Shown piece after piece: positions 4,216-16,543 of a stretch of 64,000 bases of DNA. Under the pieces are notes generated by a model. The model saw only the letters and a program-made list of their open reading frames with translations. It searched no databases and was not told where the DNA came from. Source of the DNA: an uncultured Gemmatimonadales bacterium (GTDB lineage Bacteria; Gemmatimonadota; Gemmatimonadetes; Gemmatimonadales; Gemmatimonadaceae); assembly GCA_963850905.1 (NCBI GenBank), contig CAWKMU010000003.1, forward strand, positions 416,001 to 480,000, in the 5' to 3' direction. The position numbers were made by a program, and so were the translations under genes. How positions within the stretch are numbered: the stretch's first letter is position 1; each line of letters opens with the position of its first letter.

Positions 4216-4289
4216 GCGCGAGTAGCTCAGCTGGATAGAGCGTCGGCCTCCGGAGCCGAAGGTCGTGGGTTCGAATCCCGCCTCGCGCG
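4216..4289 (+). tRNA. tRNA-Arg(CCG), CCA not encoded
   Basis: Acceptor GCGCGAG/CTCGCGC, D arm AGCTCAGCTGGATAGAGC, anticodon arm TCGGC-CTCCGGA-GCCGA, T loop GGTTCGAATCC. Confidence 0.95.
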
Positions 4290-12074: not shown

Positions 12075-12839
12075 TTGCGAGCGCGCTCACTCAAGCACGA
12101 GTACGAAGACTACGTCGAGCGGGAGATCGAGAACTATAAGGACTCTCTCCCGCGCCACGTCCTCCTGAGCATCGGGGACGAGGCGGTGGCGGCCATGCGT
12201 CAACAGTCGCAATTCGTGCTCACGGAGCTCGTGCTGTGGGAAGAAGTGGACCGCATCATCATGCGCCGCCTGCGAATTCCGACGTACCCGACATGGCGCA
12301 GGCGATGCTTCCGCACCCTGGAGCAGTATCGACAGCCCGAGCACTGGGGCCTGCGCCCCGAAAGCGCGTTGGTGCGATCGATTCAACCGGACGGCGAGGC
12401 GCACGTCCTGGTAACCGGTGGCGCGGCTGAGCGCGCGGCGTTGTACCTCGCGGCGCGCGGCTGCGATGTGACAGCGGTTGGGGAATGCGCAGATGTGCTC
12501 GACCGCGTGATGATCGCGGCGGGTGCCGCGGGACTGACACAGCGCGTTCGAGGGTGCGCGACGGACATCAGCCATTGGACGCCAGACGGGCCGCTCACCG
12601 CCGTCGTCTGCACACCGGCCGCATTCGCCGGCCTCACGCCATTAGAGCGCAAGAATGTGATCGAGTTGCTGCAGCAGGCGACGACCGATGGCGGCGTGCA
12701 TCTCGTCGAGACCATCGTGGCTGGTCAGGAAGCCATGTCGGTGGCCGAGCTCCGCGATCGATATGCGGGCTGGGAGATCAGCATCGAACGCGACGGCACG
12801 CAGTCGCGCTCGTTCCTCGCGCGCAAAGGCGCCGCGTAG
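12075..12839 (+). CDS. Hypothetical protein with C-terminal SAM-methyltransferase-like fold
   Basis: ALYLAARGCDVTAV and TTDGGVHLV resemble TehB-like class I MTase; acidic helical N-terminal domain. Confidence 0.55.
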   Translation: MRARSLKHEYEDYVEREIENYKDSLPRHVLLSIGDEAVAAMRQQSQFVLTELVLWEEVDRIIMRRLRIPTYPTWRRRCFRTLEQYRQPEHWGLRPESALVRSIQPDGEAHVLVTGGAAERAALYLAARGCDVTAVGECADVLDRVMIAAGAAGLTQRVRGCATDISHWTPDGPLTAVVCTPAAFAGLTPLERKNVIELLQQATTDGGVHLVETIVAGQEAMSVAELRDRYAGWEISIERDGTQSRSFLARKGAA

Positions 12840-12867: not shown

Positions 12868-12973
12868 GCGTGTCGAATTGCGACACGCGTGGGGACACCG
12901 TCCGAACGGAAGAATTCCAACCTCTGACCTGCCAACGAGTTGACGCGCGACGTCCTCGTGGCACCAACGATGC
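12868..12973 (+). promoter_or_regulatory. Candidate sigma54 promoter with upstream palindromic enhancer
   Basis: TGGCACCAACGATGC (12959-12973; GG-N10-GC) plus palindrome GCGTGTCG-aattg-CGACACGC (12868-12888). Confidence 0.5.
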
Positions 12974-13037
12974 CTATTAGTGGGCCCGACGGGGCCGCAC
13001 CGGCCTCGCCTCCACCGCAAGCGGAGACTAGCCGATC

Positions 13038-13187
13038 ATGAAGGAGATACGTCAACCAACCGTCGCGGACGAGCCGGTCGGGATCATCATCTCGCGTGGC
13101 ACGCGCGAGGAGGTCTCGCCCCGAGTGGTCGCATACATCTGGGGACCGGTGCCGGTCGAGGACGAATCGACGTCGCGCGCGGCATGA
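13038..13187 (+). CDS. Small hypothetical protein, 49 aa (MKEIRQPTVADEPVGIIISRGTREEVSPRVVAYIWGPVPVEDESTSRAA)
   Basis: GGAG upstream, ATG...TGA, GC-rich third positions, promoter upstream and strong hairpin downstream; below ORF-track cutoff. Confidence 0.55.
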   Translation: MKEIRQPTVADEPVGIIISRGTREEVSPRVVAYIWGPVPVEDESTSRAA

Positions 13188-13215
13188 AATGATGCCCTAG
13201 GCTGTCGGCGACACG

Positions 13216-13269
13216 GACAAACACCGCGGGCCAGTCTCGTACAGTGAGACTGGCCCGCGGTGTTTTGTC
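13216..13269. terminator. Probable bidirectional terminator hairpin between two convergent small ORFs
   Basis: AAACACCGCGGGCCAGTCTC-gtacagt-GAGACTGGCCCGCGGTGTTT, 20-bp perfect stem. Confidence 0.65.
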
Positions 13270-13307
13270 GCATCGACAGCCTGCTTCGACTGTCGACTAC
13301 TCTGTGG

Positions 13308-13400
13308 CTAGCGGCGCCCTTTCTTCTTTGCGCCCTTGCGAGCCGTCTTTCTGCCGCCCTTACGGGCAGACTTCTTTCTGGCACCTTTCTTCGCTGCCAT
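13308..13400 (-). CDS. Lys/Arg-rich microprotein, 30 aa (MAAKKGARKKSARKGGRKTARKGAKKKGRR)
   Basis: GGAG 8 nt before ATG; 16/30 basic residues, none acidic; AAG-rich codons stand out in a high-GC genome. Confidence 0.7.
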   Translation of the reverse strand: MAAKKGARKKSARKGGRKTARKGAKKKGRR

Positions 13401-13905
13401 ACGATCAGCTCCAGTTCTGGAGTGGAGCACCCGTCCGATCCCCCGGTGGATCGGCGGGCGCGGATCCGCACGTCGCGGCGTGAAACCGCAGCGAGCGGAG
13501 CCGATGGTACGCGGCCGCATCGCGGCGCGCGGAGTCGGTGCGCGAACAGCGTTCGCGCATGAAGGCCAAGACAATGGTGCGAGTCGACATCATCTGCTGT
13601 CGACGACCGGTAGCGCGACTTTGTTACCGCGCAATGCGGCGCGGACCGTCTGCCCGCGCATCATGCACGCCCGGATCGTGCTGCCCGGTGCGCCAACTCC
13701 CGACATCAAAGTCGGCTGGCAGCACCGGGGCACGTCGATCGGGCGTGAGATCATGCAATATCGAATCGGCAGGAGAGAGACGTCAGCCGCAACACCCAGC
13801 GAGATGCAGTTGGTGGTGAATCGACCACCCGTTCATTGACCTGCGGCACTGCGTTGGTCGCACAATTCGAGTCGCTGTTCGGCATCACCGTGCACAATGC
13901 TCGTT
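13401..13905 (-). ncRNA. Candidate long structured leader/ncRNA upstream of the basic microprotein
   Basis: Near-continuous chain of hairpins, including an ~80-nt rod at 13666-13747; no convincing ORF; promoter just upstream. Confidence 0.35.
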
Positions 13906-13910
13906 GCGCG

Positions 13911-13939
13911 AATATAGATAGCACCAAAATGCATTGCAA
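13911..13939 (-). promoter_or_regulatory. Sigma70-type promoter
   Basis: Minus strand TTGCAA-17 nt-TATATT in an AT-rich patch. Confidence 0.55.
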
Positions 13940-14142
13940 TACGCAATGTTGGCGCCGTGCAACGACATGAGGCGCGAAACGCGCCAAATGCGCATCCGTT
14001 TGAGCGCTGCGAAACCGCCGCGCGAGGTCGCGCGACCGCCCGCGCACGGCGCCAGCACACGCCCCTCACGTACTGTATCTTCCCCTCGCGCCGACGTCCG
14101 GCGCGTTGGTTGTCGACCCGATACTCCGCCGCTGAGGGGCAT

Positions 14143-15168
14143 GTGCGAGCGCTGGTCAAGCGAGCAGCGGAACCCGGCATGGTACTGACCGAGGTTCCCG
14201 AACCGACGATTCGAGAGGACGAGGTCTTGATCCGTGTCCGCCGCGCCGGCGTGTGCGGCACGGACCTGCACATCTACCAGTGGGATGACTGGGCCCGACG
14301 GCGCGTCAAGCCGCCGATCATCGTCGGGCACGAATTCGCGGGCGACGTCGTGCGCGTCGGCCGACTCGTCACCGACGTGCACGAAGGTGACCGCGTGACG
14401 GCCGAAGGGCACATCGTCGACGGCCGGTGTCTGCTCTGCCGGACGGGCAATTCACACGTGTGCCCCTACACGAAGATCATCGGGGTCGACCGCGACGGGT
14501 GTTTCGCCGACTACATCGCCATGCCGGCGACGAACGTCTGGCACCTCGACGCCGAGACGTCATACGAGGTCGGCGGCATTCACGACCCCATGGGCAACGC
14601 GTTTCATACCGCGCTGACCGCGCAAATCCCTGGGGCGTTCGTGCTGATCACGGGGTGCGGTCCGATCGGGCTGTTCGCCGTCGGCATCTGCAAGGCCGCC
14701 GGCGCGGCGCGCGTCATCGCCTCCGACCCGAACGACACGCGCCTGGCGCTCGCCCGGCGCATGGGGGCCGACGACGCGGTTCATCCGAGCGGCGTCGAGC
14801 GCGTCGTGCGCGACGCCACCGACCAGCTCGGCGCCGATGTGGTGCTCGAGATGTCGGGCGTCCCAGCTGCCGTGCACCAGGCGCTCGCGCTCGTTCGCGT
14901 CGGCGGACGCGTGCAGATGCTCGGCATCCCATCCCGGCCCATCGACATCGATTTCGCGACCGAAGTGATCTTCAAAGGCCTCACGATCTACGGCGTCGTC
15001 GGCCGCCGAATGTACGACACCTGGATCCTCATGAGCCGCTTTCTGCGCGCCGGTCATTTCGACCCAACACCCGTCATCACCCATCGCCTCCCGCTCGAAG
15101 CCGTCGACGAGGCGATGCGGCTGATTACGTCGGGTGAAGCGGGGAAGGTGGTGTTTGAGATTGCATGA
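14143..15168 (+). CDS. tdh: L-threonine 3-dehydrogenase
   Basis: GVCGTDLHIYQWD, GHEF, VTAEGHI, DPMGNA, GCGPIG; adjacent to kbl; GTG start with GAGGGG RBS. Confidence 0.93.
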   Translation: MRALVKRAAEPGMVLTEVPEPTIREDEVLIRVRRAGVCGTDLHIYQWDDWARRRVKPPIIVGHEFAGDVVRVGRLVTDVHEGDRVTAEGHIVDGRCLLCRTGNSHVCPYTKIIGVDRDGCFADYIAMPATNVWHLDAETSYEVGGIHDPMGNAFHTALTAQIPGAFVLITGCGPIGLFAVGICKAAGAARVIASDPNDTRLALARRMGADDAVHPSGVERVVRDATDQLGADVVLEMSGVPAAVHQALALVRVGGRVQMLGIPSRPIDIDFATEVIFKGLTIYGVVGRRMYDTWILMSRFLRAGHFDPTPVITHRLPLEAVDEAMRLITSGEAGKVVFEIA

Positions 15169-15307: not shown

Positions 15308-16543
15308 ATGACCGCCTCCCACACCACCTCGCCACTCGCCGCGGACCTCGCCACTGAGCTCGAGCAGCTCAAGCGCGACCGCGTGTACAAGCACCTCAAC
15401 TATCTCGACTCGCCTCAGGCCGCCCGCGTGCAGATGGATGGTCGCGGCGAGGTGCTGATCATGTCGTCGAACAACTACCTCGGACTCTGCACCGAACCGA
15501 GCGTCATCGAGGCGGGGATCGGCGGCCTGCGCCGCTATGGCGCGGGCACCGCGAGCGTTCGCTTCATTTGTGGCACCTTCACGGCGCACCGCACCCTGGA
15601 GGCCGCGCTCGCGCGGTTCGTCGGCACGGAAGCGTCGCTGACCTTTCTCTCCGCCTGGAACGCGAACGAGGCCCTCACCCCGACGCTGCTGCGCGAGGGC
15701 GACTTCGTCGCCTCTGACGCGCTCAACCACGCCTCGATCATCGACTCGATCCGCCTCGCCAAGGCGATTACCAAGTGCACCACCGCAGTGTATCGCCACG
15801 GCGATATGGATGATCTCGTGGCGAAACTGGAGGGCGCCCGCGCGGCGCCGCGCAAGCTGATTTGGACGGATGGGATCTTCTCGATGGAGGGCGCCATCGC
15901 GAAGCTCCCCGACATCGTCGACATCGCGCGGCGTTTCGGCGCGACCGTGGTGCTCGATGACTCGCACGCGACGGGCGTGCTCGGCGCCACGGGGCGCGGG
16001 ACCGCGGAGCACTACGGGCTCCTCGGCGAGATCGACATCATCACATCGACCCTGGGGAAAGCGCTGGGTGGTGCGGCCGGCGGCTTCGTGGCAGCTGCGG
16101 CGCCGGTCTGCGACATGCTGACGCAGCGGTCGCGGCCGCAACTGTTCTCCAACGCACTGCCGCCGACCGTCGCGATGAGCGCACTCGCCGCCGTGGAGTA
16201 CATCGAGCAGCACCCAGAGCGCGTCCGCAAGCTGCAAGACAACGCGCGCTACTTCCGCGAACAAATCAGCGAAGCCGGCTTCTCACCGATCCCGGGCGAC
16301 ACGCCAATCGTGCCAATCATCGTCGGCGAAACCGCAACCGCCATCCGCATGAGTGATCTGCTGCTCGAGGAAGGCATCTTTGTCACGGGTTTCGGCTACC
16401 CCGTCGTCCCGCACGGCGTCGCACGCGTCCGCTGCCAGTTGAGCGCCGGCCACTCGCGCGACGACATCGATCAAGCCGTCGCCGCGTTCAAGCGGGTTGC
16501 GAAGAAGGTGGGGTTGAAGCCGGGCGAGAAGCCGGCTGCATAA
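15308..16543 (+). CDS. kbl: Glycine C-acetyltransferase (2-amino-3-ketobutyrate CoA ligase)
   Basis: SNNYLGL, ASVRFICGT, LNHASIID, DDSHATG, STLGKALGG, RPQLFSN. Confidence 0.93.
   Translation: MTASHTTSPLAADLATELEQLKRDRVYKHLNYLDSPQAARVQMDGRGEVLIMSSNNYLGLCTEPSVIEAGIGGLRRYGAGTASVRFICGTFTAHRTLEAALARFVGTEASLTFLSAWNANEALTPTLLREGDFVASDALNHASIIDSIRLAKAITKCTTAVYRHGDMDDLVAKLEGARAAPRKLIWTDGIFSMEGAIAKLPDIVDIARRFGATVVLDDSHATGVLGATGRGTAEHYGLLGEIDIITSTLGKALGGAAGGFVAAAAPVCDMLTQRSRPQLFSNALPPTVAMSALAAVEYIEQHPERVRKLQDNARYFREQISEAGFSPIPGDTPIVPIIVGETATAIRMSDLLLEEGIFVTGFGYPVVPHGVARVRCQLSAGHSRDDIDQAVAAFKRVAKKVGLKPGEKPAA

Follow-up and report, generated by a model that had tools for sequence, protein, structure and literature searches.

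Long 5′ leaders of the rpoS type hold the ribosome-binding site in a hairpin that is opened by trans-acting RNAs. A second point of reference for the locus described here is the group of bacterial proteins that resemble histone H1. According to published reports, chlamydial hctA, which encodes Hc1, is controlled at translation by the small RNA IhtA (PMC4355289, PMC3469542), the length of Hc2 (encoded by hctB) varies through lysine-rich repeats (PMC2848022), and the Pseudomonas protein AlgP, an H1-like protein of KA repeats, organizes polyphosphate granules (PMC9239181). We have analyzed a 64,000-nucleotide (nt) stretch of DNA from an uncultured Gemmatimonadales bacterium (assembly GCA_963850905.1, contig CAWKMU010000003.1, positions 416,001–480,000; hereafter, the window), in which the minus strand of positions 13939–13215 holds a conserved, unannotated cassette made up of a promoter, a leader of ~510 nt, an open reading frame (ORF) rich in Lys and Arg codons and a putative hairpin terminator. 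On balance, we favor a reading in which four leader hairpins, P0–P3, are likely to hold translation down until a factor, predicted to act at a hairpin with an ACCGGG loop (P2), shifts the balance. The original prediction, made from the letters alone, had joined the promoter, the long leader, a small basic protein and a terminator hairpin into one unit, and the comparison with relatives bears this out: within Gemmatimonadaceae, the cassette is conserved, as is the order of its parts.

The likenesses and differences between the cassette and these systems can be summarized as follows. The products of the cassette are similar to Hc1 and Hc2 in being Lys/Arg/Ala-rich polycations of low complexity whose production would be controlled at translation, but the cassette has a cis-acting leader with conserved hairpins of its own in place of a known trans-acting small RNA, and its proteins can be as short as 17 amino acids (aa). 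AlgP-type proteins (NF038053) share AKKA-type repeats with the long relatives of the window protein, which match NF038053 below threshold (21–22 bits against a cut-off of 80), but they are hundreds of residues in length and homology at the level of domains cannot be shown. In the literature searched, we found no conserved structured leader for AlgP-type proteins. Gemmatimonas accumulates polyphosphate, and by analogy an AlgP-like polyphosphate role is possible for the cassette product. The resemblance to rpoS-type leaders lies in the length of the leader, in a Shine–Dalgarno sequence paired by an upstream strand and in a strong promoter combined with control that would be moved to translation, whereas those leaders have no counterpart to the conserved apical hairpin P2. 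The RNA motif of the cassette occurs in none of these systems. Searches for literature joining Gemmatimonas with histone H1-like proteins found none, and among the matches listed for small or lysine-rich proteins and RNA motifs in Gemmatimonadetes nothing was pertinent.

We regard P0–P3 as a well-supported candidate for an RNA family that lacks an Rfam counterpart and that would perform a familiar job, occlusion of the Shine–Dalgarno sequence, for an unusual and unannotated product. This places a new candidate RNA family in a little-studied, abundant soil phylum, in front of a conserved and apparently expressed gene that gene callers seem to miss. A single invariant RNA hairpin precedes products whose length ranges from 17 to 142 residues; unusually, therefore, the regulatory RNA is under tighter constraint than the protein. 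The locus also raises the question of how bacteria dose potentially toxic polycations that coat nucleic acids, and whether the targets of such proteins are the nucleoid, ribosomes or polyphosphate. The parts of the cassette are listed below in window coordinates.

13911–13939, minus strand: promoter, with −35 box TTGCAA (13939–13934), a 17-nt spacer and −10 box TATATT (13916–13911), followed by CGCG
13395–13552, minus strand: family-wide leader motif P0–P3, the match to covariance model R1, reaching the start codon
13510–13531, minus strand: hairpin P0, CGCG-C-GCCGC / GCGGC-CGCG
13464–13500, minus strand: hairpin P1, variable in sequence and length
13429–13459, minus strand: hairpin P2, with a covarying outer stem, the core CCGAUCC-ACCGGG-GGAUCGG (13454–13435) and the hexaloop ACCGGG (13447–13442)
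13409–13422, minus strand: hairpin P3, CUCCAG-AA-CUGGAG, whose 3′ arm is the Shine–Dalgarno GGAG (13412–13409), 8 nt before the ATG
13308–13400, minus strand: microprotein ORF of 30 codons and a TAG, MAAKKGARKKSARKGGRKTARKGAKKKGRR, with the ATG at 13400 and the TAG at 13310–13308
13296–13273, minus strand: hairpin after the stop codon
13263–13221, minus strand: terminal hairpin with an 18-bp stem and the tail TTTGTCC, within the 3′ end region 13215–13296

A BLAST search of 40 relatives with the 943-nt intergenic stretch matched all nine other genomes of the genus and four other genera of the family. Three close species align over most or all of the stretch (two over all of it), the other six genus genomes align only in the promoter box and in roughly 200–250 nt ending with the ORF, and the match in the four other genera is limited to a portion of the piece next to the ORF. 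The microprotein ORF is kept in all nine of the other genus genomes, and each of the 14 loci in the BLAST set carries a Lys/Arg-rich ORF beginning MAA. The covariance model R1 (144 positions, 33 pairs) covers the last ~145 nt of the leader and ends just past the start codon, so that recruitment of loci by their leader is blind to the ORF. It nevertheless led in 21 of 21 recruited loci to an ATG-started ORF, of 17–142 aa and with a Lys+Arg content of 41–65%, as against 11% in tdh. R1 has a single match in the window's own genome (13395–13552, 93.9 bits), one match per genome in 23 of the 31 other Gemmatimonadaceae genomes sampled, and no match in 119 genomes from 11 other families of the phylum. 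The core of P2 occurs once in the window's genome, and of 119 loci with the pattern, 81 have a Lys/Arg-rich ORF 45–62 nt past the pattern start. Record titles were available for 80 loci: all 51 with the ORF are from assemblies named Gemmatimonad-, and the 29 without it comprise 27 chance matches in other phyla, one chance match inside a gene and one Gemmatimonadaceae locus whose ORF exceeds the 80-aa filter.

Compensatory changes maintain hairpins P0, P2 and P3 among the relatives. In a MAFFT alignment of 90 unique leaders (A1; positions −140 to +6), which was fitted to no structure and onto which P0, P2 and P3 were written, 88.9% of cells pair, compared with 34.7–50.1% when the partners are slid by one to three columns. 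The covariation score of 0.221 was reached by none of 500 shuffles and compares with control values of 0.081 or less. A model-fitted alignment of 100 loci shows a similar difference (83.3% paired versus 38–49% slid), and 29 of its 33 pairs change on both sides. In P2, 98.1% of cells are paired: three of its pairs never vary, seven of ten change on both sides and the outer stem alternates between CG, GC and UA. Its ACCGGG loop is identical in 99 distinct sequences, and nowhere in the leader other than at the apex of P2 is the sequence frozen throughout the family. Among the loci found by the model and not by the pattern, the inner stem of P2 carries compensatory replacements (GC to UA or AU, CG to UA) around a fixed ACCGGG loop. 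The P0–P2 segment also folds well: over 96 unique homologues, the energy has a median of −18.4 kcal/mol and the z-score one of −3.27, with z < −1 in 92 of the 96. The conservation and covariation that the original prediction had called for are therefore found in relatives for the 3′-proximal part of the leader. Its remark that no known RNA family was recognized likewise stands: a search of the whole window with Rfam 15 gave only a tRNA (4216–4289), and the nine matches obtained over 12900–14300 at E-values up to 10 all scored 9–19 bits against gathering scores of 36–123.

Folding predictions place GGAG in a paired state within P3 in nearly all homologues. The pairing in P3 is kept by covariation, as expected for a cis-regulatory leader that sequesters the Shine–Dalgarno sequence: 93.5% of cells pair, and the loop-closing pair alternates between AU (46), UA (24) and GU (7). 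Among 105 unique homologues, the Shine–Dalgarno sequence reads GGAG in 97 and is 8 nt away from the ATG in 79, and its predicted probability of being paired averages 0.925. For 54 of these homologues, taken as a subset, the value is 0.96, versus 0.67 when the upstream letters are shuffled. The ribosome-binding site had been proposed at the outset to be covered by a stem, and GGAG is indeed predicted to be paired, but the conserved register is CUCCA(G)/(C)UGGAG (13422–13409) and replaces the outer GCTCCA/TGGAGC register (13428–13408) first put forward.

The promoter at 13939–13911 is present as originally described. It is the sole sigma-70-like site found in a consensus scan of 12900–14300, where 0.3 would be expected from shuffles; it matches the consensus (TTGACA/TATAAT, hexamers 16–18 nt apart) at 9 of 12 positions with its 17-nt spacer, and it is nearly identical in all ten genus loci. 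An element of the form TTGC..N17..TATATT+CGCG, pointing at the ORF, is found in 40 of 80 unique cassette loci, at a distance of 135–851 nt 5′ of the start codon; in the window, the −10 box ends 510 nt 5′ of the ATG. The shortest versions, seen in other genera at 135–192 nt from the ATG, adjoin P0 (L157, L162, L161 and L014; the last is from a genome flagged unpublished, G016, and is never the sole support, the other three being in agreement). It follows that the promoter belongs to the cassette and that the additional ~350 nt found in the genus of the window are a lineage-specific expansion. Judged from its sequence, the promoter would start transcription near 13904 and produce the whole leader as one transcript, and the scan found no promoter-like or terminator-like site on the same strand of the upstream leader that would divide the unit. 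The cspA gene of this genome (G000:C3:810372, minus strand, outside the window) is preceded by a similar promoter, TTGCGT..N..CCTATATTCGCC, and its 5′ leader measures roughly 140 nt. Both promoters contain TTGC..TATATTCGC, and TTGC-N19-21-TATATTCG occurs at only three sites genome-wide.

RNA from soil provides a hint, although not proof, of transcription in nature, both of the unit and of some portion, at least, of the long leader. Seven soil metatranscriptome runs, from seven studies, contain a few sampled words of the stretch, and contigs from four runs, each from a different study, were aligned. Those from three runs span 13226–13495, which includes the terminal hairpin, the ORF and P2–P3, at 90–100% identity, and a contig of the fourth spans 13581–13778 in the upstream leader with 8 differing letters in 198 aligned bases; the stretches without cover (13496–13580 and 13779–13905) are uninformative. 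We also note an inverted repeat, CATTGC-N5-GCAATG, that overlaps the −35 box at 13932–13948; its complete form is confined to the five closest genus loci, and it may be an operator that the divergent tdh promoter region shares.

The long relatives of the window peptide are made up of AKKA/ARKK-type repeats. Three of six score 29–31 bits on PF07382 (HC2), below its cut-off of 40 bits, and on the H1-like models of NCBIfam the long relatives score 18–22 bits, where the cut-offs are 80 and 135. These repeats and sub-threshold HC2 matches identify the window peptide as the short end of a histone-H1-like family of Lys/Arg/Ala-rich, low-complexity proteins of 17–142 aa. Its composition suggests that the peptide binds RNA or DNA. 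The 30-aa protein itself has no match in Pfam or NCBIfam at E-values up to 0.1, and a 105-aa relative found five unnamed low-complexity matches in a protein homology search. Neither the exact 30-aa sequence nor six longer relatives are present in a collection of 15 billion proteins; this fits a picture in which gene callers skip these ORFs, but a different called start could also explain it. Membership in chlamydial Hc2 (PF07382/NF038052) or in NF038053 was considered and rejected, the scores lying below the curated cut-offs and the likeness being compositional.

A small basic ribosomal protein of the kind known as Thx, bS22 or bL37 was likewise considered as the product and rejected, there being no Pfam or NCBIfam match and no mimic of P2 in rRNA sequence. 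At the sequence level, neither a P2-like CCACCGGGGG (one mismatch allowed) nor TCCACCGGGGGA (two mismatches allowed) occurs in the 16S–23S stretch of this genome. The 23S rRNA match in the same genome (L164, G000:C3:3191528-3195352) extends over 3825 nt for model positions 15–2912, ~900 nt above the model, and may reflect an insertion.

At the 3′ end of the unit, a 20-bp terminator hairpin had been predicted after the stop codon. The hairpin is there, at 13263–13221, but its stem is 18 bp and its T tail is weak: TTTGTCC falls below the scan rule of five T in eight, and the scan therefore makes no terminator call. In relatives, the stop is followed by hairpins with clearer T runs.

The leader upstream of P0 behaves differently from the conserved motif, and its features are as follows.

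13553–13905, minus strand: lineage-specific part of the leader, containing the hairpins at 13829–13812, 13747–13666 and 13604–13583
13829–13812, minus strand: hairpin GGTGGT/ACCACC
13747–13666, minus strand: 82-nt rod
13604–13583, minus strand: hairpin GTCGACA/TGTCGAC
13559–13539, minus strand: hairpin TGCGCGAAC-GCT-GTTCGCGCA, conserved at genus level and located just 5′ of the family-wide motif

All of the stems listed in the original prediction are present on the minus strand, but the impression of a leader packed with them exceeds what folding supports. The z-score of 13553–13905 is −2.34, versus −2.07 on the plus strand, and because these values are modest and not strand-specific, the density of stems is only weakly above chance; it is the conservation and covariation of the 3′-proximal part that lift stems above that level. 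The upstream leader aligns with three close species only (75–93% identity), and for the four alignable close species the covariation term from RNAalifold is +0.56. A value of this kind lends no support, though some pairs of the rod change on both sides. Thus, the claim of a structured RNA of ~500 nt was only partly right: the last ~145–160 nt (13552–13395) are conserved and covary, whereas the ~350 nt between promoter and motif, including the rod, are specific to the lineage, are without covariation and have no demonstrated role. The upstream leader has no second copy in the window's own genome by BLAST and is therefore not a repeat. Two observations made by eye on the alignment of the ten genus loci concern this region: the hairpin at 13559–13539 is retained with altered stem letters, and a short block, TGCATGA with its flanks (13751–13757, minus strand), recurs in upstream leaders that are otherwise divergent.

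That the leader lacks a credible ORF, as proposed, is supported by its composition. The spread of GC content by codon phase is at most 0.22 over 13200–14159, indicating no coding periodicity, compared with 0.33–0.45 in tdh (14160–15119) and 0.15–0.55 in a methyltransferase gene (12120–12839). Pfam and NCBIfam have no match to the microprotein, to its 88-aa upstream extension or to five other ORFs of the leader in six frames. The tdh gene, for L-threonine 3-dehydrogenase, starts with GTG at 14143 on the opposite strand, and consequently about 950 nt contain only the 30-codon ORF.

The mechanism that we favor would work as follows. A strong, cspA-like promoter would make plentiful mRNA, P3 would pair the Shine–Dalgarno sequence and lower initiation (translational throttling), and the apex of P2 would serve as a recognition hairpin for a trans-acting protein or RNA that tips the balance. 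Candidate readers of P2 would be the polycationic product itself, acting by feedback, or a 49-aa protein encoded in synteny with the cassette (see below); arginine-rich peptides read RNA hairpins in phage and viral systems. The peptide, once made, may act as a free polycation like a histone H1 tail on DNA, RNA or polyphosphate.

Several points weigh against this mechanism. (i) The pairing of GGAG is a prediction, and P3 alone is predicted to contribute only −5.9 kcal/mol at 37°C, so that a ribosome might open it unaided. (ii) An exact P2-core pattern was used to gather 76 of the 90 sequences in A1, and the invariance of P2 in that alignment is therefore partly a result of selection, from which only the loci recruited by the model are free; in addition, the relatives are not independent and the alignments A2 and A4 were fitted to the structure of the model. 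(iii) P1 pairs poorly in a fixed register (53–63% of cells), and the core 13395–13552 has a z-score of −2.43 as a single sequence. With folding energies only modestly better than those of shuffles, one sequence alone could not carry the claim. (iv) A low-complexity polycation of variable length would be an unlikely sequence-specific reader of a hexaloop. (v) The RNA evidence consists of assembled contigs, which are mute on strand, 5′ end and level, and DNA can occur in RNA libraries.

The alternative that survives best is that the element is constitutive, with hairpins that only stabilize a highly transcribed short mRNA by protecting it from RNases and mildly damp its translation, without factor or switching; P2 would then be conserved for folding or processing. 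The alignments contain no alternative (anti-sequestor) pairing with conserved support, P3 is only moderately stable by the energy given above, and a near-consensus promoter like that of the genome's cspA fits an abundant transcript in need of protection. We consider this explanation unlikely all the same, since an invariant hexaloop and three never-varying closing pairs amid a drifting leader exceed what stability would need, and P1 does the same job with free sequence.

A riboswitch, in which the motif would have some small molecule or an ion as its ligand (a polyamine, Mg2+ or a signal linked to phosphate, for instance) and thereby open or close P3, would account for a conserved, structured leader that sequesters the Shine–Dalgarno sequence and has no Rfam match, and the need for a polycation product could track an ionic metabolite. 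The distribution of conserved nucleotides makes it quite unlikely, however. They are confined to the apex of one hairpin and to the Shine–Dalgarno/anti-Shine–Dalgarno pair, the alignments show neither a junction nor an internal loop that is conserved and might provide a pocket, and the motif stands in front of only one type of gene, within one family.

The genomic settings of the cassette suggest a further alternative, namely that the motif is an evolutionary relic, the 3′ end of a PmbA/TldD gene together with an intergenic spacer, carried along with a moved microprotein gene and devoid of RNA function. In a set of 80 unique loci whose upstream sequence extends for 650 nt or more, the cassette lies directly 3′ of a PmbA/TldD gene in 27, is of the promoter type in 40, the window included, and is of neither type in 13. 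In the 27 (L021, L024, L025, L042, L097 and 22 others), P0 is formed by the last eight codons (..FTSLSEAV, stop) of a PmbA/TldD-family metallopeptidase gene, and some promoter-type loci still read ..DF..L.EAV and a stop at P0. In the 40 promoter-type loci, P0 is non-coding and yet it pairs: over all pairs of the motif, 78.8% of cells are paired (37–48% slid), the three helix segments of P0 pair in 76.0–84.6% of cells and all nine of its pairs change on both sides, so P0 is maintained at the RNA level and is more than a relic. Neither P2 nor P3 falls within the PmbA/TldD gene, and the window genome's own PmbA/TldD-like gene is elsewhere (G000:C3:2089211-2090071), without a cassette and with the hairpin lost. 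A descent of the upstream leader from a decayed PmbA/TldD gene was rejected, except for the P0 relic, as tblastn matches are only weak and non-colinear (E 0.009–8.9). On this evidence, a motif without RNA function is very unlikely. Equally improbable is an RNA thermosensor in which a change of temperature would melt P3 or refold the leader, as in the temperature-responsive ROSE and fourU elements and cspA mRNA: the Shine–Dalgarno sequence does lie in a short hairpin and the promoter does resemble that of the genome's cspA, but in the window's leader its predicted pairing stays at 0.96 or above in silico from 5 to 65°C, which is not how a thermometer behaves.

Two genes accompany the cassette on its downstream side.

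13038–13187, plus strand: convergent gene for a 49-aa acidic protein with the core EPVGIIISRG..AYIWGPVP and the C-terminus ..RAA
12075–12839, plus strand: gene for a 254-aa protein with a TehB-like S-adenosylmethionine (SAM)-methyltransferase domain, 5′ of the 49-aa gene on the same strand

A homologue of the 49-aa protein is encoded convergently, 150–590 nt past the microprotein ATG, in 69 of the 81 loci with enough downstream DNA. Its 31 aligned members (A5) share the core EPxGIxIS.G...P....W, and most end in Ala-Ala. The protein has no Pfam or NCBIfam family, and an AlphaFold2 (AF2) model is uninformative, with a pLDDT (predicted local distance difference test) of 71, a pTM (predicted template modeling score) of 0.19 and no assigned secondary structure. 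A C-terminal AA can act as a proteolysis tag, which is a candidate reading for this terminus. The 254-aa protein consists of a helical N-terminal part of ~85 aa and a TehB-like SAM-methyltransferase fold. Among 37 loci with flanks of 1.5 kb, 34 have its gene next to the cassette, the window's own locus being one of the 34. A profile search of the PDB identified TehB-type methyltransferases (2i6g, 3.5e-9; 2xva, 6e-8), and the AF2 model (pLDDT 85) has TehB 2i6g as its best Foldseek match (5.6e-11).

Both neighbors accompany the cassette in both genomic settings, which suggests a functional module, and the 254-aa methyltransferase might methylate the lysine-rich product. An extended version of the favored mechanism can be imagined on this basis, in which the locus would be a dedicated homeostasis circuit for a free, histone-tail-like polycation: a strong promoter and a clamped ribosome-binding site would be combined with an ACCGGG operator read by the product or by the 49-aa protein with its Ala-Ala tail, the TehB-like methyltransferase would modify the polycation, and analogous cassettes would have arisen repeatedly across phyla. 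Taken as a whole, this circuit is possible but doubtful.

On the other side of the cassette, the plus strand has a G+C hairpin at 14087–14105 that resembles a terminator, its tail being rich in T, about 40 nt before the tdh GTG. The tdh gene itself (14143–15168) is followed by a gene with an aminotransferase fold at 15308–16543, likely kbl.

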